From positions 1 to 64,000 of IMG/VR virus record IMGVR_UViG_3300005518_000002: 64,000 nucleotides of DNA; one strand, 5' to 3'. A model generated the notes under the pieces. It was not told where the DNA came from. It was given only the letters and a program-made list of their open reading frames with translations, and did no database searches. The stretch comes from a virus. Below, one piece after another: positions 33,129 through 61,365 of this stretch (the stretch's first letter is position 1; the number at the start of each line of letters is the position of its first letter). Both the position numbers and the translations under genes were made by a program.

Positions 33129-33220
33129 GACTGCCTCCTTTCATAGCGCCAGACGAGGTACAGCACGACACCGACGACAACGCCGGAGCCGAGCAGGGCA
33201 CCGATCATCTCCAGGATCAT
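33125..33220 (-). CDS. small membrane protein
   Basis: MILEMIGALLGSGVVVGVVLYLVW; ATGA couplings on both sides. Confidence 0.55.
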   Translation of the reverse strand: MILEMIGALLGSGVVVGVVLYLVWRYERRQS

Positions 33221-33813
33221 GACGCCGTCCACATCTGGAACAGGTACGTGTCGGGGTGGTCGTACTCCGGCTGCCAGAGCTCGTGCTTCAGATCCGTCCA
33301 GCCTGCCGCCAGGAGCATGTCTTTGACGTCCTGCCAGCCCCAGCCCCAGTAGTGCTCGGGATTGCGCGTGTGGTTCTCCCCGCACGGCGTGGTGAGGAGG
33401 AGGTGCTTCGCCCTGTCCCGGATGGCGCGCAGCAGCGCGTCAGGATCCTCCACGTGCTCCAGGGTCTCGGAGCAGAGGAACATGTCGACCGCGGGGATCC
33501 GGGCCACCGTTTCCTCGATCGGTCCGGAGTAGTAGTACCCACGGACTCCCGGCGGGGGGAGAACGAGATCCCCCACATGGACGTCGCGCCAGGCGTGGGT
33601 GCAGTTCTGAATGATCGCGGCATCTCCGCAGGACAGATCGGCGATCGTCTGCGCCCCGGTTTCCGCGGCAAACCGGCCGAGCAGCTGGGAGGTTTTGGCC
33701 ACCCGCTCCAGATGGTCCGGCCACCAGGTGTGGTCGTAGGTGCGGTGGTAGATGCGGGCGCGCTCTTCATCGGTGTAGAACGGGCGGATCTGCCAGCGGG
33801 TCATGACCAGCAC
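33217..33813 (-). CDS. class I SAM-dependent methyltransferase-like protein
   Basis: IADLSCGDA, D...CSETLEHVEDP, LLLTTP. Confidence 0.75.
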   Translation of the reverse strand: MLVMTRWQIRPFYTDEERARIYHRTYDHTWWPDHLERVAKTSQLLGRFAAETGAQTIADLSCGDAAIIQNCTHAWRDVHVGDLVLPPPGVRGYYYSGPIEETVARIPAVDMFLCSETLEHVEDPDALLRAIRDRAKHLLLTTPCGENHTRNPEHYWGWGWQDVKDMLLAAGWTDLKHELWQPEYDHPDTYLFQMWTAS

Positions 33814-35309: not shown

Positions 35310-36683
35310 TCAGCCAATTTTGCGGCTGACTGCTGCGAGCCCCTTACCGCCGGATTTGTTGCCGGTCATCATCAGCTTGACGATCCGCTGATGCCACGCT
35401 GGCCACACCATCGCGTCCAGCCGGTCGGGAGACCAGTCGAGCTCTTCGTGCCATGTACACAGCTGGTCCTCAAGCTCAGGATGCACCCCGACGAGGTGCC
35501 AGCGGTTCTGCTCGGTCAGCGCGCTGACGGGGGAAGCACGGACCTTCTTCCCCCGGCTGGCTGTGACCTTGCGCACCGGGATGCTGATCCCCATGGAGTC
35601 CGCGGCCGCGCGGATCGTGCCGATCGCCATGTCGCCCCCGTAGTTGATCTCTACGCAGATGTCGTCCGCCTCGTAGTCGACGGCAGCCTGGACAGCGCGC
35701 CGCCCCCATCCGTCAGGGGTGAGGTGACAGGTACGGTCGGCCAGCACGAAGCCGTGTGCCAGGGGAGTGCGCAGCCGGGCATCCTCCGTCTCCCGGGTGA
35801 TGAGGGACTTGCCGACAACGACGATGCCCTGCTCCCCGGCTCCGCCCGACGGGTCCACTCCGACGCTGCGCCGGACGTTGGGGGTCATGAGATCGAGATT
35901 CGGTATGCGGCTGGAGTCGAGACCGGCGTGGGTCCACAGTGCGTTCTCGTCCTGGTCGAGGACTTCGGCATGCAGCTCCTGACGGCCCAGCTGCGTACCG
36001 CCGTACTCGTCCTCCAGCTCCTGGCGGAGCTCCCCGTCCAGGTGGGGGTTGTCGTACATGGAGGCACGGGAGACGGAGACGTTGCGGAACTCCCCGCGGT
36101 CCAGCTTTTTGATCAGCGGACGTGGCTTCGGCGTGGTCGATGCAACCCAGTGGGGCCGCTGTCCGACGCGGAGACCGAAACGCATGTGAGGCCAGCACGC
36201 GTCGAGGTAGCGCCAGGCTGCAAGCTCTTCTGCCCAGACCACACAACGGTTACCACCGGAACGAAGACGTTCAACATCCTCCGGAGTATGCGCACCAAAC
36301 AGCTTCGCCTCGGATCCATTGGGCCAGCGTACGGACAGACCACCGGCACCGGAGAACATGCGTGCGTCGGGGTTGTGCGCCTTGAGGCCCGAAGGTCCGT
36401 TGACGCAGCTCGTCGCCGCGTCGCCGAGAGTGGGAGCGATGATGCCGATCCAGTGCGGGGTGTGACCGGGCAGGCACGGCGGACCGTTGACATGATCGGT
36501 GATGTACTTGGCGCAGGCGTCCGTCTTACCGGCGCCGCGCCCCGCGAGCAGCAGCCAGCCCCGCCAGTCGCCCGGGGGAGGAATCTGGTGAGGCAGGGGC
36601 TGCCACTTGACGATGGACATGGCACGCAGATGCATGGCCAGCCGGTCGCTGGCCCCGCGTGCGATGCTGCCCTTCGCGCTCAT
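35310..36683 (-). CDS. terL: terminase large subunit
   Basis: AGRGAGKT Walker A, WAEELA, TTP, GVDP, SPDRLDA. Confidence 0.93.
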   Translation of the reverse strand: MSAKGSIARGASDRLAMHLRAMSIVKWQPLPHQIPPPGDWRGWLLLAGRGAGKTDACAKYITDHVNGPPCLPGHTPHWIGIIAPTLGDAATSCVNGPSGLKAHNPDARMFSGAGGLSVRWPNGSEAKLFGAHTPEDVERLRSGGNRCVVWAEELAAWRYLDACWPHMRFGLRVGQRPHWVASTTPKPRPLIKKLDRGEFRNVSVSRASMYDNPHLDGELRQELEDEYGGTQLGRQELHAEVLDQDENALWTHAGLDSSRIPNLDLMTPNVRRSVGVDPSGGAGEQGIVVVGKSLITRETEDARLRTPLAHGFVLADRTCHLTPDGWGRRAVQAAVDYEADDICVEINYGGDMAIGTIRAAADSMGISIPVRKVTASRGKKVRASPVSALTEQNRWHLVGVHPELEDQLCTWHEELDWSPDRLDAMVWPAWHQRIVKLMMTGNKSGGKGLAAVSRKIG

Positions 36684-36731
36684 GTGATCAGTGTGCATCA
36701 GCGGGGACCGGACACTTTCCGGCCGGGCACT

Positions 36732-37234: not shown

Positions 37235-38491
<1,257 letters not shown>

Positions 38492-38550: not shown

Positions 38551-39600
38551 TCACGCAGACGCCAGCCATTCGGGATGAGCCAGGGTCCAGGCAACAGTCT
38601 TGGCCATGGAGTCGTCCAGACTGATCGGCGCGCGCCAGCCGAGGTCAGCAATCTTGGAGCCGTCCAGTGCGTAGCGCAGATCATGGCCGGGGCGCGAGGA
38701 GTGGAAACTCTCCATCTTGATCTCCGGGGGCCGACGGGCCTGGAGACCGGCCAGACGCATCCATTCGTAGATCATGCCTACCAGGTCGAGATTATTGACC
38801 TCCCTGTCCCCCACGATGTGGAACCGGGGCGGCCTGCGCGCGCCGCCCGCGTAGGGGACCATGTCGACTTTCTCGTCCAGAACCTGGCGAGCGAGGTAGA
38901 GCCAGGCGTCCGCGAGGTTGCGCGCGTGGAGGTAGAAACGGGAGCCCGGGGTCCCGTCCGGCGCGCAGTGCACGATGACCGGCACACTACGCATGATCTT
39001 GCTCATGGTCATCGGCACGAACTTCTCGGGATCCTGCATCTCCCCGACGATGTTCATCGTATTCGTGATGACCACCGGCACACCGTAGGTGCGCCAGTAG
39101 CTGAAGCAGATCGCCTCCTGCGCAGCCTTGCTGGCGCTGTAGGGATTGGACGGTGCGAGCGTTTCCCACTCCTTGTGCCGGTGGTCGCCGTAGGCCGGAC
39201 CGTAGACCTCGTCCGTGCTCATCTGGAGGAAAATCTTCGGCTTGTGCCGCCGGGCCAGCTCCAGCACGTTGAGCATCAGCGAGGTGTTGTTCAGGGTGAA
39301 GCCGACGGGATCTTCAATCGACCGGTCCACGTGGCTCTCCGAGGCGACGTTCATGAACACCTCGCAGCCCTCCAGCGCAGCGTGGAGACTCATGGGCGCG
39401 GGGGCCTGCATGTCCCAGTGGACGATGGTCACGCGCCGGGCCCACTTGTCGTCACCGCAGGTGCTCGAAGCGATGCGCTCCGGCATGCCCTTGTGCTGGA
39501 ACGAGACAGAGCAGACGATCTCCCAGTCCGTCTCCATGAGCAGGTGGCGCAGGACGTGCGAGCCGACGAAGCCACCGGCTCCGGTGAGGAACGCCTTCAT
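38551..39600 (-). CDS. rmlB: NDP-sugar 4,6-dehydratase (dTDP-glucose 4,6-dehydratase-like)
   Basis: TGAGGFVG, ASESHVDRSI, STDEVYG, PYSASKA, RPGHDLRYA. Confidence 0.9.
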   Translation of the reverse strand: MKAFLTGAGGFVGSHVLRHLLMETDWEIVCSVSFQHKGMPERIASSTCGDDKWARRVTIVHWDMQAPAPMSLHAALEGCEVFMNVASESHVDRSIEDPVGFTLNNTSLMLNVLELARRHKPKIFLQMSTDEVYGPAYGDHRHKEWETLAPSNPYSASKAAQEAICFSYWRTYGVPVVITNTMNIVGEMQDPEKFVPMTMSKIMRSVPVIVHCAPDGTPGSRFYLHARNLADAWLYLARQVLDEKVDMVPYAGGARRPPRFHIVGDREVNNLDLVGMIYEWMRLAGLQARRPPEIKMESFHSSRPGHDLRYALDGSKIADLGWRAPISLDDSMAKTVAWTLAHPEWLASA

Positions 39601-39616
39601 GATCTTGCTCCTGTGG

Positions 39617-40360
39617 TCAGGGGTGGACGATCCAGTTCGGGTTGCCGGACGCCACCGACGGGAACAGCGACGTGCCGACCGAGTGATAGCCGACGGCGAA
39701 GCGCCCCTGGAGCGGAGCCCAGCAGCTGTAGGCCCGCGCGGACTGCCGGACAGCGATCTTGGTTTCTTCCGCGTACTGCGCCGGGATGACGTACTGATCG
39801 CAAGGGATCTCGCCGGACAGTGCCTGCGACTCCCGCACCAGCCAGCGCACGTCCGGCCACGCGGCAGGATTCGCCTCACGGAGCTGCTTGAGCGCGAGCC
39901 CGTACATGGAATGGGTGGGGTCAACGTCCTGCCAGTGCATGGTGTACATGCCTGCCGCGGGGTCCAGATCGTGGAAGTACTGGAGGACTGCCTTGGCCTG
40001 GTCGATGGTGGGGGAGTCGTGACGCAGGGCCGTGTTGAGATGGATCTCCCCGGGCACGGCGCCGAGCAGCGCGGCGGAGTCCATGAACTCCGCATCCCGG
40101 CTGGCGACGATGTCGTCCGGGGTCAGGGTGGCGTATCCCTCCCGGGCCAGGTCGTGCGTTCCGCCCCACCAGGAGTTCGCCGTCAGGCCATTGATCGAGT
40201 CGATGGCTGTGGTGGTGCGGCCGGGCGCACCGAGGATGAACGAAACCCGGCGGCCGACACGGGCGTGGTACCAGGCAACCTGTCCCATGGACAGGCAGTC
40301 GTCGTCCGCATGGGGCGAGAGGAAGTACACCCGGCGCCCGGTCGGATTGATGATCGTCAA
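39617..40360 (-). CDS. PIG-L/LmbE-family deacetylase
   Basis: SPHADDD, R.AEF..S...LG, D..PTH. Confidence 0.8.
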   Translation of the reverse strand: MTIINPTGRRVYFLSPHADDDCLSMGQVAWYHARVGRRVSFILGAPGRTTTAIDSINGLTANSWWGGTHDLAREGYATLTPDDIVASRDAEFMDSAALLGAVPGEIHLNTALRHDSPTIDQAKAVLQYFHDLDPAAGMYTMHWQDVDPTHSMYGLALKQLREANPAAWPDVRWLVRESQALSGEIPCDQYVIPAQYAEETKIAVRQSARAYSCWAPLQGRFAVGYHSVGTSLFPSVASGNPNWIVHP

Positions 40361-40589: not shown

Positions 40590-41234
40590 TCAGTCTCCGC
40601 TCTCCGTGGTCTCTTCCACCACTTCACCGTCGATGGTGCGCAGGTGGGACTGTGCTGCTTCCAGCGCGAGCATACGCGACTGCGGTTCCAGTCCCGCGGC
40701 GTCGAACCCCGCGAGGATCGCTTCGGCCACCACGGCTGATTCGAGATCCTGCCGCCGCTCCAGTGCGACGTTCAGCTTCTCCGGAGCGTTGAGGCCGTGA
40801 CGCATGGTGTACCGGTCCTCCACCTTGAGCAGCCGGTCGATTGCCGCGAAGACGGGACCGAGGTCATTGACGGTTTCCTCCTCCCCGGTCTCCTCGTTAT
40901 GGATCTTTACGATCTTCCCGTTCTGGATCAGAGGATGCTTCCTGGACATGATCGTATAGAGCCTGCGGCGCAGATCGTCGTCGCGCATGTCGGCCAGCTG
41001 GACCAGTTCTTCGAGGTTCTGGTTCAGCTCGTTACGTGCTGTCATCAGTGCACGCTTGACGTCCTCGCACGCAGCAGCACGGGAAGGTTTGCCACCGCTA
41101 TCAAGGTAGGGGACAGCCTCAGCCACTTGTTCCCAGGTCAAACCCTGGTTCCGTAGCTTGATCGCCTTTGCTCGCCGTTGCGCAACGAGGGCCCGGTTGC
41201 TGTTCTCGTGCGACGGGGGAATGTGATGTCCCAC
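40590..41234 (-). CDS. terS: terminase small subunit (HTH)
   Basis: RR.KA..LR..G.TW..VA HTH; AIDRLLK...R....GL.AP; RBS GGAGG. Confidence 0.7.
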   Translation of the reverse strand: MGHHIPPSHENSNRALVAQRRAKAIKLRNQGLTWEQVAEAVPYLDSGGKPSRAAACEDVKRALMTARNELNQNLEELVQLADMRDDDLRRRLYTIMSRKHPLIQNGKIVKIHNEETGEEETVNDLGPVFAAIDRLLKVEDRYTMRHGLNAPEKLNVALERRQDLESAVVAEAILAGFDAAGLEPQSRMLALEAAQSHLRTIDGEVVEETTESGD

Positions 41235-41257: not shown

Positions 41258-42151
41258 TCAGCGAGTGACGCCCTTGGTTGTCTCCCGGAACTCCTGCGCC
41301 CGCTTGATCTCTTCCCGCTCGCTCCCGCAGTTGACCATGGCCGTGCGCATGTAGCTGACGACGCTGATGCGCTCCGCCCCGCAGTCCGGGCAGGCCGAGG
41401 TGCGCGTCACCCCGCAGGCGCAGACGATGGCCGTGTTGCCGTGCCACTGGTGCGCGTCCATGAGGATCAGGTCGCCGTCCTGTAGATCCACGGCCACCCG
41501 GTACTCCGGGAAGACGAAGACTCCCCCGGTGTACTCCCCCCGGCGCAGCGTGAAGATCGTGCTGAAGCCCTTGTCCAGATCACCCTTGTCCGTGTGCACG
41601 CCGGTCGGGTACGTGTTGTTCACCGTGATCGTGGTAAACGGGGTACCCGGCACCACCCAGTCATCGTGCGTCCGGCCGATCTCCTCCATCTGCGCCTGCC
41701 AGCGGTCCGGCACGTGGATGCTCATCTGCTCGGAGACCTGACGGAGCAGCGGATGCAGCGCCTGCCACTCCGGGAGGTGGCGACCGGTCCACTGGGTGAG
41801 GCGGCAGAAGTTGAAGGCGTTGGTCGGGTCAGCCGAACCGATCATCGAACTGGCAAGGTTCTTGGCATAGGTGCGCTTCTGTTCTCCGACCTTGACCCTG
41901 CGGGTGGCACCGGCCAGGCCCCGGTTGTCCGTACGTACGCTGCGCAGCGAGTGCAGGATCTCGTACTGCTCGGGAGTGACGGCTTCGCGCATGGCTCCGG
42001 GGAGGTACACGCACAGCGGCCGCCCGTCGGGCAGGAGAAGACGGGTGGGTCCGGTCATCAGCAGGCTGTACGCCCCGGACGTGATGACCTTGCCCTTCAT
42101 CTCCTCCAGTGTCTGAGGGTCGATACGGCTGCGCAGCCGGGCACTGATCAC
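41258..42151 (-). CDS. TET/JBP-family 2-oxoglutarate/Fe(II) dioxygenase
   Basis: CRLT, PFTTITVN, H.D (HTDKGD), GG...FPEY, HGNT, ERISVV.Y.R. Confidence 0.88.
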   Translation of the reverse strand: MISARLRSRIDPQTLEEMKGKVITSGAYSLLMTGPTRLLLPDGRPLCVYLPGAMREAVTPEQYEILHSLRSVRTDNRGLAGATRRVKVGEQKRTYAKNLASSMIGSADPTNAFNFCRLTQWTGRHLPEWQALHPLLRQVSEQMSIHVPDRWQAQMEEIGRTHDDWVVPGTPFTTITVNNTYPTGVHTDKGDLDKGFSTIFTLRRGEYTGGVFVFPEYRVAVDLQDGDLILMDAHQWHGNTAIVCACGVTRTSACPDCGAERISVVSYMRTAMVNCGSEREEIKRAQEFRETTKGVTR

Positions 42152-42732
42152 GAGCGCACTCCGTCCGTGAGGAATCCGAGAGCGGGGATGTCCTGCACCC
42201 GTTCAGCCATGCAGCCGGGCTCCACCAGATGCGTGCTGGTCATGGAGTGGAAGTCGATGCCCCCGTCAGCCGCTGCCCACTCCGCCAGGTTGTACGCGCG
42301 GGTCTGGGCTCCCTTGCGCCAGCTGTAGTTCTGGGACGTGCCCCGCTGCGCGCAGCGATGATCCAGGACATCGTCGTCCGCATACAGGTAGAGCAGGTGG
42401 ACCCGCACTCCCGCAGCCGTCAGCCGGGACAGGAAGGGACGCGTGGCCAGCCGGGCTCCCTCCCCCAGGGCGAAGTCGACCGGGGTGCGCAGCAGGAAGT
42501 CCGAGGCACGGAAGGAGATGTCCATGGCCAGGCTGTCCGTGCCGGGATGCTGCTGACGGGGCACTCCGAGTTCGAGCCCGTGCAGGGCTCCGCTGTTCAT
42601 GGAGCGCAGCAGCGTGTGCGGCACGGGCGGACCCTTGACGACTTCCATGTCCCAGGGCAGGCGCAGGTAGCGCATCAGCGTGGACTTGCCGACGCCGGGT
42701 GCTCCGCAGATGTACAGCAGGTCTTTGATCAC
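42148..42732 (-). CDS. P-loop kinase, 5-hmdU DNA kinase-like
   Basis: GAPGVGKST, GTDSLAM, EGARL, R...RG..Q...W.KG. Confidence 0.8.
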   Translation of the reverse strand: MIKDLLYICGAPGVGKSTLMRYLRLPWDMEVVKGPPVPHTLLRSMNSGALHGLELGVPRQQHPGTDSLAMDISFRASDFLLRTPVDFALGEGARLATRPFLSRLTAAGVRVHLLYLYADDDVLDHRCAQRGTSQNYSWRKGAQTRAYNLAEWAAADGGIDFHSMTSTHLVEPGCMAERVQDIPALGFLTDGVRS

Positions 42733-43577
42733 AGTGGTCCTCCGACGATCCAGAAGCAGGTCGTGCCGTCCCGGCGCTTCCACCAGTCCGGCGCAAGCTG
42801 GTCCAGATGGTGGGCGACCTTTCCCTCATAGGTGGGGTGCAGGACGATGCCGTCCAGCGTGTGGGGCTGCCGGTCACCGTAGGCATAGACGCCTGTGCCG
42901 TGCAGGTCGATGTGCTCGTAATCATCCCAGACCAGACCCATGCGCAGCAGCCGCGCGCGCATCCACTCCCGCCGGTCCGGGCCTATGCCGATCAGCTTGA
43001 CCTCCACGTCGCTGCGCTTGTGGGCGATCAGTCCGGTGAGGATGCCGGTCGCGGTGTTCGCCGACCCGAACGGGATCACCAGCGTGCGCACCTCCAGCGG
43101 CAGGTTGGCGACCTGTTCGGCCACGGGACCGTGGAACGCCATGAGCTCCACAGCACTGGCGTCCGGCGGGGTGGTGATGCCGTACTCCAGGAGATAGGCC
43201 GAGCCGTCCCTCCGCACGAGCTCCCGGGCTGCGCGCTGCAAGGCCGGGTTGTACCCCACGCCGATGAAATCGAAGTCCGCTCCGGCCGCCTGAGCAATCT
43301 GCGGAGAGGGGTGGCGGAAGGCAGTCGACGGACGGGTGCCCCCGTAGATCACGAGGCAGTCCATGTCCAGCTCCCGCGCCGTGATGGAGACCATGGCCGC
43401 CTGCGGGCTGAGCACGCTGCACGCGGTGACCACCCGGGTGTAGCCGAGGGCGGACGCGCGGCGGAGCAGGTGCTGGCAGGCACGGAGCTTGGATCCGTTG
43501 ATGCCGTGCTGTCCGGTGTAGAGATCTTCCCGCTTGAGCTGGAGTCCGCCGCGCAGCTGTACGGGGGTCAGATCCAC
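42729..43577 (-). CDS. PLP-dependent enzyme, fold type II
   Basis: LTPV...LKREDL...NGSKLR (Schiff-base Lys), SPQ, PFGSANT, LHPTYEGK, FWIVG; GTG start with RBS GGGAG. Confidence 0.85.
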   Translation of the reverse strand: MDLTPVQLRGGLQLKREDLYTGQHGINGSKLRACQHLLRRASALGYTRVVTACSVLSPQAAMVSITARELDMDCLVIYGGTRPSTAFRHPSPQIAQAAGADFDFIGVGYNPALQRAARELVRRDGSAYLLEYGITTPPDASAVELMAFHGPVAEQVANLPLEVRTLVIPFGSANTATGILTGLIAHKRSDVEVKLIGIGPDRREWMRARLLRMGLVWDDYEHIDLHGTGVYAYGDRQPHTLDGIVLHPTYEGKVAHHLDQLAPDWWKRRDGTTCFWIVGGPL

Positions 43578-44644
43578 CGGATCTCCCGGCGCCCGAAGCT
43601 GCCCTGCGCCACGGCGGACTCGAAGCCATTGGCGAAGCAGGGCCACTCCTCCGTCATGTTGATCACTTCTCCGTGTTCGAGGAACCAGTTCTGCTTGACC
43701 GGCACGCAGCCGGGGTCCAGCGGACTGTCCTCCAGGAGGAGCCGGGGCGGGAATGCGGTGCGCCGGGCCTCCCACAGCAGATCGAACCTCCGCCCGAACT
43801 TGATCTCTCCGTGGCGGATGCGGTCGTACAGCATGTCGTTGTACACACCGGGGTAGCGCCGGTTCGGCTTGTGCCAGCTCTTGAAGGTGCACAGCGCACT
43901 CTCCAGGCTGAGGTAGCCCAGCGCACGGTCGTCCCAGCCGAGCGTGCGCACCAGGTCCCGTGCGTCCCCCAGAAGCCGGGCACCCTCGGATTCGAGCTTC
44001 CTGATCATTCCCGGGGAGTAGCGCCCGCCGTAGCTGCCGAGCTGGTGGTCACTGATCCAGCCCTCGTGTCCGGACACCAGGCACAGGCCGTTGCGGTGGG
44101 AGCGGGATCCGGAGATGTCCTGGAGCATCAGCGTGTCCGCGTCGGGCACCGGCAGGCCGAGGATGCGCAGGTACTCCAGGTAGCTCCAGGCCGAGAGCCG
44201 TCCCATGGTCGGAATGGCGAGAGCACGCTCCCAGCAGCTGTCCCAGTCACCCTTGCGCCAGTAGCGGGCCTGTCCCGCTCCGGTCAGCGCACGGTACCCG
44301 GCGCAGGCCCGGGGGAACTTGGCCTTGTGGTAGCGGCGGTCGGTGTCCCACTGGAGCGCGCCCCAGTGCTCGTTGAGAAAGGCGACGGCCTTGTCCGAGT
44401 CCTCCGGCCGGGGCGCAGCCCCGAACAGCAGCAGCGTCGTGACGGGGTTCTGCGTGTTGCCGTTGAGGAAAGCGAGCCAGGCCCGCTGCTCCTCGTCGAG
44501 GTCCAGCTCCCGGGCGACGTGCGGCAGCACGTAATGCACACCGCCGGGGAAGGACTGGTACTTCAGGGACCAGGCGTAGAAGCGCAGGAAGATCTCCCTC
44601 CGGTACTCGGGCTTGCGGAAGTCAGCGCCGTGCTCAGGATTCAT
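43568..44644 (-). CDS. amino acid:DNA transferase (aGPT-Pplase2-like)
   Basis: NGNTQNP, WDTDRRY.K, GRLS.WSYLEY, SRSHRNGL, LES.LC..K......RYP..Y.DM. Confidence 0.8.
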   Translation of the reverse strand: MNPEHGADFRKPEYRREIFLRFYAWSLKYQSFPGGVHYVLPHVARELDLDEEQRAWLAFLNGNTQNPVTTLLLFGAAPRPEDSDKAVAFLNEHWGALQWDTDRRYHKAKFPRACAGYRALTGAGQARYWRKGDWDSCWERALAIPTMGRLSAWSYLEYLRILGLPVPDADTLMLQDISGSRSHRNGLCLVSGHEGWISDHQLGSYGGRYSPGMIRKLESEGARLLGDARDLVRTLGWDDRALGYLSLESALCTFKSWHKPNRRYPGVYNDMLYDRIRHGEIKFGRRFDLLWEARRTAFPPRLLLEDSPLDPGCVPVKQNWFLEHGEVINMTEEWPCFANGFESAVAQGSFGRREIRWI

Positions 44645-45404
44645 CCGGACCCTCCGGGGAGTCCGCGTACTCCAGCGCGTTGCCCTCGTCGCTCAGTCCG
44701 TGCTGGTCGATCACCCGCGCGGTCACCCGGGCCGCGCACAGCAGGATCTCTCCCTGGCTGCGGGCGCCCAGATTCTCCCGGATCTTCATGATCAGCTGTC
44801 CGAGCTCGTCGGCCTGCGCACTGGGCAGGGCGAGGACGATGTCCCGCACCCCCCGGCTGGCCATCGTCGTGGAGTCGTGTCCGCCGTGGGACGCAATACG
44901 CCGCTCCACGTCCTCCGGGGTGTCGTTCCAGGACGTATCGGGGGTGGCATAGGGGGTCACCTCGGCCTCCTCTCCTGAGGCTGCCTCCAGGGCTTCCAGG
45001 AGGTCCGCCACTTCGTCATCCGCGAAGCCGGTCCCCTCGTAGTCGCCCTCCAGCGCGGTGAGCAGCGCGGCGAGAGCTCCGGAGTCGTAGTCCCCGTCGT
45101 CGGCCGCCTTGTTGTCCACCAGGTTGATCTTTTTGGCGGTCCTGTCGTCGCACGTGATCACCTCGCAGCGGGCTTCGGTCTCGCCCTCCTCGGCCAGCGC
45201 GATCATCGTGTGGTTGCCCGCCAGCACGACCAGCCCGGCGTCCGGCGTCTCGCGGACGACCAGGGACCGGTACTGACCGTGCTCCCGCAGGCTTCCGCGG
45301 ATCACGTCCACCCGGCCACGCTTGGCGTTGCCCGGGAAGGGGGTCAGCTCCCCCAGGGGGATGACATCGGTGCGGACATAGGTGCTCTTGGCTGTCTGGG
45401 TCAT
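44634..45404 (-). CDS. ParB/Srx-fold protein
   Basis: L.P.PGNA.RG....I..SL...GQ...LVV...VLAGNHT, LVDNK...G.YD. Confidence 0.85.
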   Translation of the reverse strand: MTQTAKSTYVRTDVIPLGELTPFPGNAKRGRVDVIRGSLREHGQYRSLVVRETPDAGLVVLAGNHTMIALAEEGETEARCEVITCDDRTAKKINLVDNKAADDGDYDSGALAALLTALEGDYEGTGFADDEVADLLEALEAASGEEAEVTPYATPDTSWNDTPEDVERRIASHGGHDSTTMASRGVRDIVLALPSAQADELGQLIMKIRENLGARSQGEILLCAARVTARVIDQHGLSDEGNALEYADSPEGPDES

Positions 45405-45757
45405 CGGGCTTTCCTCGCTCCTCGGACGGTCCACTGGACAACATGATCCAGCTCATGGCGCACAACAGCGTCCAGCCGCTTCTGCGCCTCGGGACTCAGC
45501 AGTACGTACGAGCACCCGGTGCGCCGCTCGATGCGCTCCAGGACGATGTCCTCCAGCTGCTGGTTCGTCCTTCTGATCCAGTTGTCGGTATCCAGGCAAC
45601 CAGCCTGGAACACCTGATATTCGAGCAGTCTGGTCTTCCGCTCCTGCTTCTTCCGCCGACCGGCAGGGGTGAGTTCGTTCTCCCTGATCAGGAAGACGGC
45701 CAGACCGAAAAACGTCAGGGTGGTCACGATGAGGCCGATCACCGTTTCAGCGTTCAC
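45401..45757 (-). CDS. membrane-anchored hypothetical protein
   Basis: N-terminal TM; ATGA coupling to the ParB-like gene. Confidence 0.6.
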   Translation of the reverse strand: MNAETVIGLIVTTLTFFGLAVFLIRENELTPAGRRKKQERKTRLLEYQVFQAGCLDTDNWIRRTNQQLEDIVLERIERRTGCSYVLLSPEAQKRLDAVVRHELDHVVQWTVRGARKAR

Positions 45758-46058
45758 GGTTGCCCTCCCAGACGATGCCCCGGGAGAAACCCCCGCGCTC
45801 CATGGCCTTCGCCCTGCGGATCTCCTCCAGCTCCGACGCACTGACGCCGAGACCCAGCGCCAGCGTGTAGACGACTTCGAGCACGTCGGCCAGTTCCTCC
45901 GGCGCGGTCCTGTCGTCGGCCTGGAGGAATTCACCGACTTCTTCGGTCAGCTTCTGGCGCAGCCTGCGGCGGTACTCTGCGGAGTCCGCGATGTGGGTGA
46001 CGGGCTCCTGCCCGTTCTCCCGGCAGATCTCAGGGATCCTGTCCCTCACGAGCTTCAT
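45747..46058 (-). CDS. MazG-like nucleoside triphosphate pyrophosphohydrolase
   Basis: KLVRDRIPEI, KL.EEV.EF, EELADVLEV, ERGGF. Confidence 0.85.
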   Translation of the reverse strand: MKLVRDRIPEICRENGQEPVTHIADSAEYRRRLRQKLTEEVGEFLQADDRTAPEELADVLEVVYTLALGLGVSASELEEIRRAKAMERGGFSRGIVWEGNRER

Positions 46059-46246
46059 GACGGTGTCCTGCCGCTCCGCTTCAGCAGCTGCGCGGCGATA
46101 GCACTGATCTCCTCGGCCACGGCCCCCACCACGGCCGCGCCGTGCTCCCGCTCCAGCTCTTCGGGCCACCAGCCCGCCTGAACCACAGACTTCAGGATGA
46201 GCGCCGCGCGGAACGCCGCATACTTCTTGATCTCTGCCTTGTTCAT
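46055..46246 (-). CDS. hypothetical protein
   Basis: RBS AAGGAG; MNKAEIKKY. Confidence 0.6.
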   Translation of the reverse strand: MNKAEIKKYAAFRAALILKSVVQAGWWPEELEREHGAAVVGAVAEEISAIAAQLLKRSGRTPS

Positions 46247-47962: not shown

Positions 47963-50900
47963 TCACTTGGCGGAGATTTCTCCCCAGTTGTGGCCCGGCT
48001 TCGAGAGATCGCACAGGATCGGCACATCCCTCCATTCCCAGGTGAAAGCGTCCTTGATCTCTGCGCCGACTTCCGCCGCCAGGTTCTCGGGTACCGAGAA
48101 CACGAACTCGTCGTGGACCCAGCCCCTCAGGTACGCCCGGTACTCGGGGTGGCGGTCCATCAGGCGGAGCAGCACCTCACAGGTGATGTCCCGCGCCCCG
48201 CCCTGGCCCATCAGCGCGGGAGCCACCGTGTACGCCCACTTCGGGTCACAGCGCATCAGGCGCCCGAATCCGTTGTCGAGCAGTTCCCCGTTCGCCCCCT
48301 TGGCCCGTACGTCGTCGCGCCATTCCATCAGCCGGGGGAACCGGGCCTCCATTCCGTTGACGAAGGCATAAACGATTTTCGGGTCCGCACCGTCTTCGAT
48401 CATCCGCCGGGCCCCGAGACCGTAGTTCCAGCCGTGACCCCGGGCCTTCGCATCCTGCCTGCTGATTCCGAGCATGTCCGCGATCAGCTGGTGCGCGTCC
48501 TTCTGTGTGCCGTCCTCCTCGAACCCGAACAGCGCCATGTAACCCGGGTCCTGGCAGTGCCCGGCAATCGCCCGCATGTCGACCTGCGCCAGGTCGCAGG
48601 CCATCAGCACGTCCCCGTCGTCCGCCTCGAAGATCTCCCGCTCCACGTGGCGGCCGCCGTGCTTCCCGTAGACGGTCATGCCCGGTTCGGTGACCGAGCC
48701 CCGGCCGCTGGCCTGGCGCATGGACACCTTCGGGTGCACGCGCCCCTCGGGCGTCAGGTACTTCTGCGCGGTCTGGTAGACGGTGCGGGTGGTGGTGACC
48801 ACGCGCATCAGCTCCAGCGCCCGCTTCAGCTCCGCAGGGCACCGCGGGTGCTCCGCCACCCGGTCCAGCGTGTCGGCCGCCGTGCTCAGCCTGCCGTTCT
48901 CGGTCTTCGGGGGCTGGGTGACGCCGTGCTGCTTCCACAGGTCCGTGAGCCAGGCGATCCCCTCCGTGGTGGCGAGAGGGGAGCTGAACGGCTCCCTGAC
49001 GGCCTTGCGTGCCTTCCCCCGCCCCCGCATCACCTCCCGGGACAGCGGGAGCCCGTAGCCCTCGCTGAGCTCTTTGAGGGCTGCCTGCTTCTTCTCCTCC
49101 CCGTCCCGCAGCCGCTGGTTCAGCAGCTCCGTGTTGACCTTGAACCCGTTGAGCGTCATCCGCCCCATGAGGGGGAGGATCCTGTGCTCGCGCCGGGTGT
49201 AGTCGTCCGAGGGCAGGATCCCGCGCACCGCCCGGGAGGCTTCAAGATCGCCCCGCAGGTAGTCGTTGTACTCAGAGTCATCTTTCGGGATCTTGTCGAA
49301 CCCGCCGTGCTTGCGCGCCAGAACCCGGATGTCGTTGGTCTTCCCGGCCACCCCGTAGCGCTGAGCCACATGATCCAGATCGTACTCGTCCACCGACGAC
49401 TTGCCCCGGCTCCTCGGGGGGTGCGCCTGCCGGGCGAGAGGTTCGGTGTCGACCGCCTTGCGGGCGAACGCGTCGAAGTCCATCCGGTGCCAGTGCGCGA
49501 GTGCCGGGCCGTCGAACCCGAGGATGTTGTGCCCGTAGACCTCCGGTGCCCGGGAGATCATTTCCACCAGTTCCGCGGGGGGCACGCCCGTCCTCGAATT
49601 GCCGTGCTGGTCGATCACTCCGGCAAGGCGCACGAAGCCCTCCCCGTAGGTGAACGCGGCGGACGCGTCAGCGGTCTCCAGGTCGAACCCGATGGGGCCC
49701 GAGAGGTCGATTTCCACGGGGGGTGCGGGGTCCGCAAAAGGATCTACGGAGAGGTCGAAATCAAGATCGTCCCCAAGGGCGTTCCAAGATCGGGTACCGT
49801 CAGTACCGTCAGCGCCGTTAAGTCCTCGTGATGGCTCATTTTTTCTGGTTAACCGGGCTGACGGTACTGACGGTACCTGATCTTGGTCCAGCTCTGTGAC
49901 GTGCATTTTTTCATTTTTCGCTTGTTCAGTGTTCAACGACTTTTCTCCCTCCAGAATTTTTTCTGCGCCCGTTTTGTACCCATTCTCGCGACCGGCCGCG
50001 GGACCCTCCGACGGACCCCGGAAAGGATCATCAGGACAGTCCGTGCAGTCGTCCCCGGGAAGATCGTCCGGGGTGAATTTCAGCCCCCTCCAGGCGTAGT
50101 AGGTCGACCCGAGAGGAACGGACATTCCGGACGGCCGGGAGAGCCCCGACTGCTTTTTGATCTTCTTCCTGTCGACCGGATTCTGCGACACCAGGTCGTG
50201 TCCCCCGAACCGGCTCACGAAGGTTTTGTCCCCCCATTCCTTCTGTCCCTTGTCCTTGATGTAGGAGTTGAAATCCGCGTACAGCTCCTTTGCGATCACG
50301 TGTGAGGCGTCGTCGAACTCCAGCCGGTCCTGGATGTACGACATGATCAGATCGGAGGACCGGCGCCATTCCTGGGTGTCCTTGTCCACCCGGTCCGGAG
50401 GAGGGGGCATGATCGTACCCAGCTCGTACCAGCGCCGGGCACCGGCCGCCATCCACGCCAGAACGGCCTCCTGGATCTTCGGATCGGTCTTGCAGCGGTC
50501 ACGGAGCGTAGCGTCACCGAGCCGGTCGTTCGGCCCTTTCACCTCTTCCTGCGTCTTGCGGTAGGTGTAGGGCCAGCGCACCAGCGCCAGGCGCCTCCAG
50601 GTGCCGTGGTCCGTCTCGTCGACCACCGGCTTGTGGTTGGAGTTGATGAACAGGCTGTGCGTCGCCTTGAAGGTCACCGGGTCCTGCCGGATGCGCCGGG
50701 CCGTCACGTACGCCGTACCGGCCAGCTTCTTCGCCCGGTTGGTGTCCAGGCGCCGGGCCTCCGGCGTCTCCTCCAGCACCGCGTAGCGCGCCCCCATCAG
50801 ATCCATCATTTCGGTGGGGTGGTTGTCGTTCGCGTTGCCGAGCATCACCCGGTCGCTCACCTGCACGTGGTACTTCCCGGCTGCTTTGGCGCACGCGTCG

Positions 50901-52261
50901 TAGATCGTGCTCTTGCCGTTGGCCCCGCCGCCCTGACAGATCAGGATCAGATCGTCCGGAGTCATGTGCCCGGTGATCGCCTGTCCCTCCCTCAGCTGGA
51001 ACCACTCCACCACGTCACCCGGCAGGGCCAGCAGCGCCTTGTCCCAGTCCGCGTGGTGTGCGTCCTTGACGAAGTCCACTCCCGCAATCTTCGTCATCAG
51101 CTGGTCGGGATCATGCGGCGTCAGCACCCCGGTCTTCAGGTCCACCACACCGTTGGGGCAGTTGAGCAGATCCGGATCGCCGTCGAAGCTCTCCGCGTCG
51201 CACTCCAGCGTTCCCTTCGCCAGCCGGATCACCGCACCCACCCGGCTCGCGCTCAGCACGCCCCGCCAGCCGTCCACCGCCGCACCCAGGTCCCTGCCCG
51301 TGCCGCTGTGCTGCGCGTCCACGGCCCGGTGGTAGTGCTCCAGTGCCCAGCGGCTCACCGTCTCCACGACAGTGACCTCCGTGGCCTCCTTCCACACCTT
51401 GCCGGTCCACTGCATCCACCCCATGCCCGCAGCCCAGCGGAAGCGGCCGTCCAGCTCCTCGTCGCACACCGTGTCGGCCAGCACCCTGTCCGTGAACGTG
51501 GCGTCGCGCGATTCGTTGGGCAGCTGGTCCATGCTGGCCTGGCCGAGGACTTCCAGCGTCCCTCCGGCATGGAAGAAGTCGTCCACGCCCTTCACGGCCG
51601 TGCCGTCCACCTCGGCCGGGATGATCAGGTACCGGACCGTGGCACCCTTGCTCTCCAGCCAGCGGCCGAGCCGCTGCATGGCCAGAAGAACGTTTCTCTT
51701 CTCCCGGGCGTCCGCGTCGAAACAGACCACGACCGTCCGGTCCATCAGGGGAATGTCTTCCCAGTCCCCGAGCGTTCCCATCTTGCTGCGCCAGTTGAAC
51801 ACCCCGGTCAGCGTGATCACTGCCTTGCCCAGGGAGGCCAGGCAGTCGGCCTTCTTCAGCCCTTCCGTGATCCACAGCGGTTCGCTCGGGTCGCGCACCC
51901 CGTCGCTCACGGGCGGGGGGACGTCCAGCCGGTTGGGCACGCCGGTCTGGCTGGCGTACTTCTGGAGCTTGCCGCCGGGGGCCTCCTGCGGAATGGCAGG
52001 CTTGAACTGGCAGCCGATCTTCTCGCCGGTCACCCGGTACATCGGGATGAGCAGCCCCGGGAACGCCATCGGGTCCCGCCATGCCCAGCGCGGCACCCGC
52101 AGGTCGTGCAGCCGGGCCTGGTCGTCGTCCGAGCCGTACAGGGTCTCGTACCCGCGGGCGCGGCGCACCTCCTCGCTGATGCAGCTCTCCTCCAGCTCCC
52201 GCAGGTGCCCGGCCATCAGCTCCTGGGCAGCTGCCACGGGTGGTTCCTCGGTGGTCGTCAC
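47963..52261 (-). CDS. primase (DUF3854/TOPRIM-like) + SF3/D5 helicase + family A DNA polymerase fusion
   Basis: ITEG.KKA, CFDAD, KGVDD; GGGANGKST, WRR; FDLET, GHNI.GFD, Y...D; CDLAQVDMR, R..AK....G..YG, VHDE. Confidence 0.92.
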   Translation of the reverse strand: MTTTEEPPVAAAQELMAGHLRELEESCISEEVRRARGYETLYGSDDDQARLHDLRVPRWAWRDPMAFPGLLIPMYRVTGEKIGCQFKPAIPQEAPGGKLQKYASQTGVPNRLDVPPPVSDGVRDPSEPLWITEGLKKADCLASLGKAVITLTGVFNWRSKMGTLGDWEDIPLMDRTVVVCFDADAREKRNVLLAMQRLGRWLESKGATVRYLIIPAEVDGTAVKGVDDFFHAGGTLEVLGQASMDQLPNESRDATFTDRVLADTVCDEELDGRFRWAAGMGWMQWTGKVWKEATEVTVVETVSRWALEHYHRAVDAQHSGTGRDLGAAVDGWRGVLSASRVGAVIRLAKGTLECDAESFDGDPDLLNCPNGVVDLKTGVLTPHDPDQLMTKIAGVDFVKDAHHADWDKALLALPGDVVEWFQLREGQAITGHMTPDDLILICQGGGANGKSTIYDACAKAAGKYHVQVSDRVMLGNANDNHPTEMMDLMGARYAVLEETPEARRLDTNRAKKLAGTAYVTARRIRQDPVTFKATHSLFINSNHKPVVDETDHGTWRRLALVRWPYTYRKTQEEVKGPNDRLGDATLRDRCKTDPKIQEAVLAWMAAGARRWYELGTIMPPPPDRVDKDTQEWRRSSDLIMSYIQDRLEFDDASHVIAKELYADFNSYIKDKGQKEWGDKTFVSRFGGHDLVSQNPVDRKKIKKQSGLSRPSGMSVPLGSTYYAWRGLKFTPDDLPGDDCTDCPDDPFRGPSEGPAAGRENGYKTGAEKILEGEKSLNTEQAKNEKMHVTELDQDQVPSVPSARLTRKNEPSRGLNGADGTDGTRSWNALGDDLDFDLSVDPFADPAPPVEIDLSGPIGFDLETADASAAFTYGEGFVRLAGVIDQHGNSRTGVPPAELVEMISRAPEVYGHNILGFDGPALAHWHRMDFDAFARKAVDTEPLARQAHPPRSRGKSSVDEYDLDHVAQRYGVAGKTNDIRVLARKHGGFDKIPKDDSEYNDYLRGDLEASRAVRGILPSDDYTRREHRILPLMGRMTLNGFKVNTELLNQRLRDGEEKKQAALKELSEGYGLPLSREVMRGRGKARKAVREPFSSPLATTEGIAWLTDLWKQHGVTQPPKTENGRLSTAADTLDRVAEHPRCPAELKRALELMRVVTTTRTVYQTAQKYLTPEGRVHPKVSMRQASGRGSVTEPGMTVYGKHGGRHVEREIFEADDGDVLMACDLAQVDMRAIAGHCQDPGYMALFGFEEDGTQKDAHQLIADMLGISRQDAKARGHGWNYGLGARRMIEDGADPKIVYAFVNGMEARFPRLMEWRDDVRAKGANGELLDNGFGRLMRCDPKWAYTVAPALMGQGGARDITCEVLLRLMDRHPEYRAYLRGWVHDEFVFSVPENLAAEVGAEIKDAFTWEWRDVPILCDLSKPGHNWGEISAK
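49793..49877. repeat. 21-bp perfect inverted repeat, origin-like
   Basis: GGTACCGTCAGTACCGTCAGC (49793-49813) / GCTGACGGTACTGACGGTACC (49857-49877). Confidence 0.85.
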
Positions 52262-53077: not shown

Positions 53078-53190
53078 AGGCCGGACAGGACACGACCCCG
53101 TGCCCCTGCGCGTGCAGTCCGGGAACCCGGTGCAGCTGCACCGGCTGTGTCTGCGAGGAGCACCACCCGGAGGAAACCGATGAGCGCTGA
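53074..53190 (+). CDS. 38-aa metallothionein-like peptide
   Basis: GTGA coupling; CPCACSPGTRCSCTGCVCEEHH. Confidence 0.55.
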   Translation: MKAGQDTTPCPCACSPGTRCSCTGCVCEEHHPEETDER

Positions 53191-60119: not shown

Positions 60120-60556
60120 GCTTCACCACAGGACAGCTCGGCATGAAGGCATACGAGATCTACGTGGCCGAGGAGATCTCCCAGGAAGCGGCCTGTGCCC
60201 GGGTGGGCACAGGCCGCAACAACCTGCGCCGGGTACTGGAGATCATCCGGAACGACCCGAGCGAGGAACTGCTGCTCCAGCTGAAAGCCGGAGAGATCTC
60301 CCTGATGCAGGCACTGGCGGACAGCCGGAAGAACATGGACATCCCGGACCGGCTCAGTGTTCAGCAGATCCGCACCGCCATGGAGCGCTTCGTCGGATTC
60401 GACAGTGTGCGTGCCGAGTTCACCGACGCGCTGCTGCTCCGGGTGCCTGCCGATGAACTCGCGGAGTTCGAGCGCAGGCTGTGCGCCAGCCGCGCTGCCA
60501 CCTGGAACCTGATCAACGCAATCCGGAAGACCAACGAACAGAGGATCACAGAATGA
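60116..60556 (+). CDS. HTH-containing protein
   Basis: SQE.A...VG..R..L.R, L..GEISL..A resembles a ParB-type HTH. Confidence 0.6.
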   Translation: MSFTTGQLGMKAYEIYVAEEISQEAACARVGTGRNNLRRVLEIIRNDPSEELLLQLKAGEISLMQALADSRKNMDIPDRLSVQQIRTAMERFVGFDSVRAEFTDALLLRVPADELAEFERRLCASRAATWNLINAIRKTNEQRITE

Positions 60557-61365
60557 GCGAGATCATGAAGGACGGCGAACTCCGGTTCGTCATCGAGCAC
60601 CTGAGCGCCAACCTGCTCGAAGTCGACCCCGCCGTCCAGCGGGACATCAGCCAGGCCCGGGTGAAGAAGATCGCCAACAACTTCGCCGAGCACAGTCTCG
60701 GAGTCCTGGTCGTCTCCCGCCGGGGAGGCGTCACCTCGGAGCCCCGCTACGTCGTCCTGGACGGCCAGACCCGCCTGGAGGTGATCCGCCAGGTCGCCGG
60801 AACGGCGGAGACCACCATGCCCGTGCTGTGCCAGGTGTACCTCAACCTGAGCCGCAGGGAGGAGGCGGAGATCTTCCTCACGCACAACGACCGGGCCGCC
60901 GTGCGCAAGCTGGACGGCTTCCGGATCTCCCTGGTGGCGCAGGAGCAGTGGGCCGTGGAGATCAACGCCGTGGCCGACCGCTACGGCTACCACGTGAACA
61001 AGGACAAGGATCCCGGCCACCGGTTCCTGGCCGTGGGTGTCGCGGAGCGGCTGTACCGCGGGGAGCGGGGCCTGGACGTTCTCGACCGGACGTTCGACAC
61101 GATCAACCGGGCCTGGAACCACACCCCCAACGCCGCTTCCGCGGAAGCGGTCATCGGACTGGGGCTGCTCTACCAGCGCCACCCCGGGGACATCGACTTC
61201 AAGGGACTGGCGAGCAGGCTGGCCAAGGCAGGCAGCCCGCAGCAGTTCATGGGGGTCGTGGCTCAGCACCGGCACGCCCTGGGCATCACCATGCCCGAGG
61301 CTGCCTACCGGTACGCGGTCCAGCTGCACGACAAGGGCCGCAAGTCCCGCCGTCTGAGCGGCTGA
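60553..61365 (+). CDS. ParB-like (DGQHR-type, DUF6551-like) protein
   Basis: L.VDP.VQR, G...VS.R, VLDGQTR, EEAEIF...N. Confidence 0.75.
   Translation: MSEIMKDGELRFVIEHLSANLLEVDPAVQRDISQARVKKIANNFAEHSLGVLVVSRRGGVTSEPRYVVLDGQTRLEVIRQVAGTAETTMPVLCQVYLNLSRREEAEIFLTHNDRAAVRKLDGFRISLVAQEQWAVEINAVADRYGYHVNKDKDPGHRFLAVGVAERLYRGERGLDVLDRTFDTINRAWNHTPNAASAEAVIGLGLLYQRHPGDIDFKGLASRLAKAGSPQQFMGVVAQHRHALGITMPEAAYRYAVQLHDKGRKSRRLSG

Follow-up and report, generated by a model that had tools for sequence, protein, structure and literature searches.

In Salmonella phage ViI (Vi01), thymine hypermodification depends on the kinases gp67 and gp243, on gp247, which attaches serine through its oxygen, and on gp226, which decarboxylates the adduct to yield 5-(2-aminoethoxy)methyl-deoxyuridine (5-NeOmdU), while in phage M6 gp51 attaches glycine through its nitrogen and a radical S-adenosylmethionine (radical-SAM) isomerase unmasks the amine before decarboxylation by gp52 (Lee et al. 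2021, PMC8989533). The same study described contigs that carry a Tet/JBP gene in place of the deoxyuridine monophosphate (dUMP) hydroxymethylase gene beside thymine hypermodification genes, and proposed that 5-hydroxymethyluracil (5hmU) is formed there in situ. Phage Tet/JBP enzymes were later shown, in vivo and in vitro, to oxidise thymine after replication (O'Toole et al. 2026, PMC13229309). One subclass of these thymine dioxygenases needs a cognate ParB-like partner on double-stranded DNA, and the modification is partial and sequence-selective (PMC13229309). Here we analyse a five-gene operon of the IMG/VR virus record IMGVR_UViG_3300005518_000002 (positions 45404 down to 41258, minus strand), in which a Tet/JBP dioxygenase and a ParB-like protein are encoded together with a kinase, an amino acid:DNA transferase (AADT) and a pyridoxal phosphate (PLP) enzyme of the kinds used by ViI.

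The window, meaning the whole stretch of DNA analysed, is the first 64 kb of this 81,859-bp record, a phage genome that has a terminal repeat of 120 bp, is rated 100% complete by CheckV and has a G+C content of about 66%. The phage is uncultured. We consider it likely that the operon encodes a post-replicative thymine hypermodification pathway run by the dioxygenase, the kinase, the transferase and a PLP decarboxylase, with the ParB-like protein as activator.

Layout of the proposed modification operon

The five genes lie head to tail in the following order.

44634..45404, minus strand: ParB-like protein, 256 aa from ATG 45404 (phrog_723, 3.5e-42; alternative GTG at 45434)
43568..44644, minus strand: AADT, 358 aa (PF18724, 3.2e-14; phrog_3271, 1.3e-75)
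42729..43577, minus strand: fold-type II PLP enzyme, 282 aa from GTG 43577 (PALP, 2.2e-10; phrog_3650, 1.1e-67; open reading frame open up to 43892)
42148..42732, minus strand: P-loop kinase, 194 aa from GTG 42732 (PF18751, 1.3e-25; phrog_800, 3.8e-13)
41258..42151, minus strand: Tet/JBP Fe(II)/2-oxoglutarate dioxygenase (TET), 297 aa (PF12851, 5.2e-17)

An original prediction, made from the letters of the window, had described five overlapping minus-strand genes at this place; all were recovered, each with a significant family match. Four of the proteins match Pfam families directly; the ParB-like protein has no Pfam match itself and is assigned through phrog_723 and through homologues at 60-74% identity that carry PF02195. 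The catalytic motifs quoted at that stage (those of the dioxygenase, the Walker A motif, NGSKLR and WDTDRRY/GRLS..SYLEY) are likewise all present.

Every junction within the operon is an overlap. The ParB-like gene starts at ATG 45404, with a 4-nucleotide overlap with the stop of an upstream open reading frame, and the AADT gene starts at ATG 44644, overlapping the ParB-like gene by 11 nucleotides. The PLP gene follows from GTG 43577 (GGGAG five bases upstream; 10-nucleotide overlap with the AADT gene), the kinase gene from GTG 42732 (GGAGGA five bases upstream; GTGA overlap with the PLP stop) and the TET gene from GTG 42151 (4-nucleotide overlap with the kinase stop codon). Longer forms of two reading frames, a 387-aa PLP enzyme and a 211-aa kinase, were dropped in favour of these internal starts, which have Shine-Dalgarno sequences and start/stop overlaps. 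The block contains neither a terminator-like nor a promoter-like site, and the five genes form a single, translationally coupled operon. Replication genes lie on one side of it, packaging and structural genes on the other.

Predicted chemistry of the five proteins

The dioxygenase scores 62 bits against PF12851, for a cut-off of 34.9. In an alignment of 27 homologues its iron triad (H186/D188/H237), the 2-oxoglutarate arginine R261 and H234 are invariant, as is a CxC...CxxC insert (C244/C246/C254/C257) between the distal histidine and the arginine. More than 1,600 homologues were found at E<=1e-5, over 120 of them with at least 59% identity, and many of them lie on contigs of 75-93 kb. A phmmer search against the PDB sequences returned chance matches only; an AlphaFold2 model (predicted local distance difference test 83.7, predicted template modelling score 0.83), compared with the PDB by Foldseek, retrieved NgTET1, CcTet and human TET2 as top matches (E 3e-11 to 4e-9, probability 1.00). 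The double-stranded beta-helix fold of solved TET enzymes is thus confirmed at the level of the model. Both traits that mark the ParB-dependent subclass of thymine dioxygenases are found, namely a co-operonic ParB-like gene and the absence of a C5-methyltransferase (PF00145) from the whole genome, and the enzyme is predicted to be a ParB-dependent thymine dioxygenase that forms 5hmU in DNA.

Its putative partner combines an N-terminal ParB/Srx-type domain with a conserved C-terminal region. Little or no variation is seen among 28 homologues in the motifs FPGNA, GQYR, LAGN(H/N)T and CDD..A..N..DN, and LAGN(H/N)T, invariant in that form, replaces the canonical GERR arginine box (box II) of segregation ParBs. 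The Pfam scan matched no helix-turn-helix (HTH) family. To judge by its motifs, the protein lacks the hallmarks of a chromosome-segregation ParB that depends on cytidine triphosphate, i.e. the GERR box and the central HTH. The loss of the box fits the finding that nucleoside triphosphate-binding residues are dispensable in 5mYOX-associated ParBs (PMC13229309). By analogy, the protein is predicted to activate the dioxygenase, a role already suggested for it, beside that of loader, in the original prediction and one in line with the ParB dependence of phage thymine dioxygenases, shown experimentally on homologues (PMC13229309).

The AADT scores 53.7 bits against PF18724 (formerly named aGPT-Pplase2), for a cut-off of 26.2. 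It is 28% identical to ViI gp247 (E 3e-22) and reaches E 0.03 with M6 gp51, a grouping reproduced by the BLASTP matrix and by the PHROGs, since gp247 is also in phrog_3271 (8e-233) and gp51 in phrog_6364. Its motifs WDTDRRY and GRLSAWSYLEY line up with gp247 around a common core of DTD.RY and GRLSAW; phmmer found nothing at E<=1 among the PDB sequences. We predict a serine:DNA transferase that converts phosphorylated 5hmU into O-seryl-thymine. The PLP enzyme shows the same affinity, with 30% identity to ViI gp226 (E 7e-40) and E 1e-3 with M6 gp52; gp226 also belongs to phrog_3650 (2.5e-241), and gp52 to phrog_7093. The lysine of its GINGSKLR motif aligns exactly with K92 of gp226, named as the aldimine lysine of that enzyme (PMC8989533). 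Its nearest solved structures are 1-aminocyclopropane-1-carboxylate (ACC) deaminases (1rqx, 1j0a), in which NGSKLR falls at the Schiff-base lysine region. From its kinship with gp226, the enzyme is a predicted O-seryl-thymine decarboxylase.

The kinase has an intact Walker A motif (GAPGVGKS). ViI gp67, a 5-hydroxymethyl-deoxyuridine (5-hmdU) DNA kinase, is also in phrog_800, and neither the window genome nor four relatives, including three genomes of the hydroxymethylase type described below, encode a kinase of this type other than the PF18751 protein. Mycobacteriophages, Streptomyces contigs and IMG/VR relatives alike have an AADT gene next to that of a PF18751 kinase. Because of the PHROG held in common with gp67, the lack of a second such kinase in five genomes and this neighbourhood, the protein likely acts as a 5-hmdU DNA kinase, though it stands outside the Pfam families tested for that activity.

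For the chemistry of each step and for the ParB dependence, the scheme proposed here draws on published homologues; the gene content, families, motifs, conservation and lack of a nucleotide-level route are observed in the genome itself. The dioxygenase, once activated by the ParB-like protein that belongs to it, would convert thymine to 5hmU at a sequence-defined subset of positions in double-stranded phage DNA. The P-loop kinase would then phosphorylate the hydroxymethyl group, the gp247-type transferase would exchange the phosphate for the side-chain oxygen of serine, giving O-seryl-thymine, and the gp226-type PLP enzyme would decarboxylate this adduct to 5-NeOmdU. All steps would take place on DNA after replication, and the position of the operon between replication and packaging genes suggests that they precede packaging. 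The role of the modification would most likely be to blunt host nucleases.

We infer the serine donor, the 5-NeOmdU product, the partial, site-specific pattern and the anti-restriction role. The original prediction had left the product base unnamed. Its identity is still a prediction, narrowed to 5-NeOmdU because the AADT, the PLP enzyme and the kinase share PHROGs with ViI gp247, gp226 and gp67 and no radical-SAM gene is present. That 5-NeOmdU is the exact product seems to us a proposition that falls a little short of an even chance.

Probable source of 5-hydroxymethyluracil and competing readings

A six-frame profile search of the complete genome found no thymidylate-synthase-like gene (PF00303) and no ThyX (PF02511), no C5 DNA methyltransferase (PF00145), no dCMP deaminase (PF00383) and no radical-SAM enzyme (PF04055). 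Since dUMP hydroxymethylases belong to the thymidylate-synthase-like family, the genome holds neither a dUMP hydroxymethylase nor a source of 5-methylcytosine (5mC), and it lacks a radical-SAM isomerase of the kind that M6 needs. The absence of dUMP hydroxymethylase, dCMP deaminase and C5-methyltransferase that had been noted for the window now extends to the whole 81.9-kb genome.

Relatives of the operon point to two ways of supplying 5hmU. Two of them (L006 and L007) have the order ParB, AADT, PLP, kinase, TET and terS-like gene, with 48-68% amino acid identity per protein and no ThyA-like gene. Three complete genomes (L009, L013 and L015) combine a homologous AADT-PLP-kinase module with a ThyA-like open reading frame of 493-560 aa and have no Tet/JBP gene. 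Glutamicibacter phage Montesquieu, a cultured example of this hydroxymethylase-type arrangement, and the IMG/VR records L008-L015 resemble the window in the order of the AADT, PLP and kinase genes (AADT 44-48%, PLP 37-49% identity) and differ from it by pairing the module with a ThyA-like pyrimidine hydroxymethylase instead of a Tet/JBP enzyme. Relatives with the module thus have either a Tet/JBP gene (n=2) or a ThyA-like gene (n=3), never both. This mutual exclusivity suggests, in small numbers, that dioxygenase and hydroxymethylase alternate as suppliers of 5hmU for one downstream module. Together with the genome-wide absences, it strengthens the earlier proposal that the dioxygenase takes the place of a nucleotide-pool hydroxymethylase.

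Several observations weigh against the proposed pathway. By family, the kinase is its weakest link: the characterised 5-hmdU DNA kinases M6 gp54 and ViI gp67 belong to PF18748 (HMUDK_HMUD1) and ViI gp243 to PF18747 (HMUD2), whereas in Pfam the window kinase matches PF18751 only and neither of these two families. BLASTP of the window kinase against gp67, gp243 and gp54 gave nothing significant. A six-frame search of the genomes for PF18748 gave no match, controls included, which makes it a weak negative. ViI also uses two kinases against one here. G001 and G002, the pair of relatives that have Tet/JBP and no ThyA-like gene, are incomplete contigs (52% and 14%), which bears on the alternation of suppliers. 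Mycobacterium phage Vincenzo (L003) carries among its genes 1-4 a gp226-type PLP enzyme 42% identical to that of the window and a PF18751 kinase, and its whole genome contains no AADT and no Tet/JBP gene; the PLP enzyme and the kinase may therefore also work in another context. Finally, the base chemistry is predicted from the genes of an uncultured phage, and the AADT and PLP enzyme are only 28-30% identical to the ViI enzymes, so that another donor, or a reaction other than decarboxylation, is conceivable.

This last point is the starting place of an alternative in which the logic of the pathway holds and its end product does not, the nucleophile being threonine, homoserine, glycine or a diamine, or the PLP enzyme not acting as a decarboxylase, with an undescribed base as the result. 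Donor specificity does vary within PF18724, with serine, glycine and putrescine as donors (PMC8989533), and among solved structures the PLP enzyme is closest to ACC deaminase and D-cysteine desulfhydrase, neither of them a decarboxylase. New products are also still emerging, with a diaminopropane-thymine reported in 2026 (PMC13458397). We nevertheless find this outcome unlikely, for the AADT and PLP enzyme fall in the PHROGs of the ViI pair and co-occur as in ViI, and the lysine motif of the PLP enzyme is identical to that of gp226. Moreover, without a radical-SAM isomerase an N-linked glycine adduct would leave the PLP enzyme no free amine, which favours an O-linked donor.

There are two further alternatives. 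In one, nucleotide-sugar genes in the genome would serve to glycosylate 5hmU partly or wholly, as in base J, leaving a minor or inactive amino-acid branch. An epimerase/dehydratase gene and a PIG-L-like gene do lie 1-2.5 kb downstream of the operon on the same strand, a GT2 glycosyltransferase and a second epimerase are encoded at 70.4-72.4 kb, and the genes found most often next to those of phage 5mYOX enzymes encode glycosyltransferases (PMC13229309). The GT2 gene is, however, about 29 kb away from the operon, and Streptomyces phage Zuko, which has no Tet/JBP gene, carries a homologous epimerase beside a glycosyltransferase and a terS-like gene; the sugar genes thus do not depend on the cassette and more probably glycosylate the virion or the cell envelope. 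Moreover, the transferase, the PLP enzyme and the kinase (Walker A) have the catalytic residues that were checked, and diverged relatives retain all three genes, so we regard a glycosylated product as very improbable. Least probable of all would be a dioxygenase that oxidises 5mC made by a host methyltransferase, with the downstream enzymes decorating 5-hydroxymethylcytosine. The top structural matches of the dioxygenase model are 5mC enzymes, phage Tet enzymes acting on 5mC exist (PMC8256090) and the characterised thymine dioxygenases oxidise 5mC as well in vitro (PMC13229309). Against a 5mC substrate stand the complete genome, which has no C5-methyltransferase, the characterised homologues of the kinase, AADT and PLP enzyme, which work on 5hmU derivatives (PMC8989533), the alternation of Tet/JBP with a ThyA-like gene in related genomes, and the adjoining ParB-like gene, a mark of the thymine-dioxygenase subclass (PMC13229309).

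Flanking genes, relatives and known systems

Around the operon and further along the genome the following features were assigned.

33217-33813, minus strand: small protein among structural genes with a weak class I SAM-methyltransferase match (Methyltransf_23, E 7e-5, below cut-off)
35310-36698: large terminase gene terL, 4 kb beyond the terS-like gene
37235-38407, minus strand: three-domain cell-wall hydrolase (Rpf-like transglycosylase, 8.7e-34; NlpC/P60, 1.7e-18; LysM), between the sugar genes and terL
38551-39615, minus strand: NAD-dependent epimerase/dehydratase (PF01370, 1e-37), GDP-mannose dehydratase-like
39617-40360, minus strand: PIG-L-like putative de-N-acetylase (weak, E 1e-4)
40590..41234, minus strand: HTH protein, probable small terminase (phrog_645, 'Rnase E', 3.5e-17; weak HTH_23), after a 23-nucleotide gap downstream of the operon
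ending at 45401, minus strand: small open reading frame with a hydrophobic segment, its stop overlapping the ParB-like start by 4 nucleotides
45747-46169, minus strand: MazG/PRA-PH-like pyrophosphohydrolase (weak, E 1e-4), upstream of the operon
47963-52261, minus strand: primase-helicase-PolA fusion, a single 1432-aa reading frame with primase/helicase-like and family A polymerase regions
53147-55837, plus strand: SF2 helicase (ResIII/Helicase_C), split by an intein (residues ~49-304) that contains Hint and LAGLIDADG homing-endonuclease domains
60481-61365, plus strand: DUF6551 protein (PF20188, 1.2e-15), possibly ParB-related
70401-72378 of the genome, beyond the window: GT2 glycosyltransferase (PF00535, 1.6e-8) and second NAD epimerase (PF01370, 3.5e-31)
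72446-73147 of the genome, beyond the window: WYL-domain protein, after the GT2/epimerase pair

The operon had been placed directly upstream of terS. A gene does follow after the short gap, and its identification as the small terminase is probable only, since it depends on the HTH and phrog_645 matches and terL lies 4 kb off. It matches the position of gp6 of Zuko, just upstream of the Zuko terL, and a gene of this kind follows TET in L006, L007 and a Streptomyces africanus contig (L032) considered below; it is not part of the modification chemistry. An open reading frame at 38551-40095 (514 aa) was rejected as a large terminase, being a composite of the epimerase gene and part of the PIG-L-like gene. 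On the other side of the operon, the overlap between the stop of the small upstream reading frame and the ParB-like start means that the operon may begin further upstream than the ParB-like gene. The GT2 glycosyltransferase and second epimerase may serve the glycosylation of the virion or envelope, or may have a role on 5hmU DNA. By profile, the small protein at 33217-33813 is not a C5 DNA methyltransferase. L006, L007 and the S. africanus contig each carry the PolA fusion upstream of their modification operon, with 40-49% identity.

The phage very probably infects soil actinomycetes, and our best guess at the host is Streptomyces or relatives, with Streptomyces the likeliest. A search of sequencing runs found the operon DNA in rhizosphere and soil metagenomes from several studies. 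Homologues of the dioxygenase at 47-71% identity occur in the bacterial genomes of Streptomyces africanus, S. hazeniae, S. andamanensis, Microbispora, Actinomadura and Haloechinothrix, and in two metagenome-assembled genomes. Identity of the portal protein to its counterparts in cultured actinophages does not exceed 38%, and in a megablast search of cultured phages with the operon the sole match was a 122-nucleotide stretch of the AADT gene.

One of these relatives is a 92.7-kb contig of S. africanus NRRL B-24243. It shares with the window phage the PolA fusion, the ParB-like gene, the epimerase (58%), the kinase (53%), TET (71%) and the terS-like gene (52% identical), and differs from it between ParB and kinase, where an AADT of the M6/PaMx11 subgroup (phrog_6364) and a flavin adenine dinucleotide (FAD)-dependent oxidoreductase are encoded, a combination reported for PaMx11. 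Its product is predicted to differ from that of the window phage. The contig is phage-sized and belongs to the assembly of a cultured strain, which could offer a cultivable handle on the lineage. In S. hazeniae, ParB, AADT and kinase are followed by an unassigned stretch of about 0.9 kb and then by TET; no PLP or FAD tailoring enzyme was found in that stretch. The gene content of the two Streptomyces species argues for a stable ParB-kinase-TET frame within which the payload is exchanged. In Vincenzo (genes 1-4), the N-terminal ParB domain is fused to a weak N6/N4 methyltransferase match.

Put together, these observations allow a wider proposal, which we hold tentatively and regard as more apt to fail than to stand. 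The operon would be the first of its sort, a self-contained, fully post-replicative natural route to the ViI-type amino-ether thymine or an undescribed relative of it, acting solely at sequence contexts that a ParB-gated dioxygenase selects. It would be carried by a widespread lineage of ~80-kb actinomycete phages that swap their payload (ViI-type, M6/PaMx11-type or none) within a fixed ParB-kinase-TET frame. The five genes would in that case be a portable kit that places amine handles site-selectively on ordinary DNA. If the predicted pathway holds, it would take no more than five small, contiguous genes to turn thymine in double-stranded DNA into a primary-amine base while leaving the nucleotide pool untouched, which would be attractive for enzymatic DNA labelling. 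There would be two entry points to one protective base, a hydroxymethylase before replication and a dioxygenase after it, and the payload swap between the window phage and its S. africanus relative would amount to a natural experiment on the modular assembly of hypermodification pathways.

The original prediction knew of no full biochemical characterisation of this gene combination. That view has to be revised for the first step and its ParB dependence, shown in 2026 (PMC13229309), and for the neighbourhood type, described in 2021 (PMC8989533); it holds for the final base, as our literature search found no paper identifying the end product of a Tet/JBP-initiated amino-acid pathway, nor a published description of a five-gene operon that includes a PLP enzyme of the gp226 type. 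O'Toole et al. 2026 (PMC13229309) make no mention of a PLP enzyme in their main text. Among the actinophage records examined, none combines Tet/JBP, AADT and a gp226-type PLP enzyme, and a tblastn search of cultured phages with the window Tet/JBP protein (1e-5) retrieved no actinophage, the best match being Pelagibacter phage HTVC112P at 30%.

Compared with the 5mYOX clade C1 (PMC13229309), the operon has the same co-operonic pair of a Tet/JBP enzyme and a ParB-like protein with N- and C-terminal domains and no obvious DNA-binding domain, and similar neighbours, namely genes for an AADT, a P-loop kinase and a terminase (here the probable small terminase), with no C5-methyltransferase; the published work on that clade, by contrast, covers the oxidation step only, with metavirome enzymes in E. 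coli. The Tet/JBP hypermodification contigs of Lee et al. 2021 (Fig. 2, sequences 22-25) and the left-end cassettes of cultured actinophages also bring together ParB-like, Tet/JBP, AADT and PF18751 kinase genes beside a terminase gene. Cultured carriers include Mycobacterium B-cluster phages such as Prince, Gordonia phage Wooper and Rhodococcus phage Tonitrus. Genes 1-4 of Prince and their counterparts in Wooper are annotated 'Tet-like J-binding protein', 'aGPT-Pplase2 domain protein' and 'DNA kinase', and the Prince AADT is 51% identical to that of the window.

With phage ViI, finally, the operon shares PHROGs 3271, 3650 and 800, the GINGSKLR motif and the DTD.RY and GRLSAW cores, and it has no need of a radical-SAM isomerase. 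It departs from ViI in the origin of the hydroxymethyl group, which ViI obtains at the nucleotide level from a ThyA-like hydroxymethylase whose 5-hmdU is incorporated during replication, whereas here the ParB/Tet-JBP pair would act on DNA. The two also differ in organisation, the ViI genes being scattered over 150 kb with two kinases and those of the window forming five contiguous, overlapping genes with one PF18751 kinase. Because the design principle and the first step are already published, the operon is a new example and not a new principle. What is new here is the whole-genome absence of alternative routes, the product prediction, and evidence that dioxygenase and hydroxymethylase alternate and that payloads are swapped. 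A class of systems so far characterised at its first step alone thereby gains a well-defined example in a complete genome and a product prediction that can be tested.

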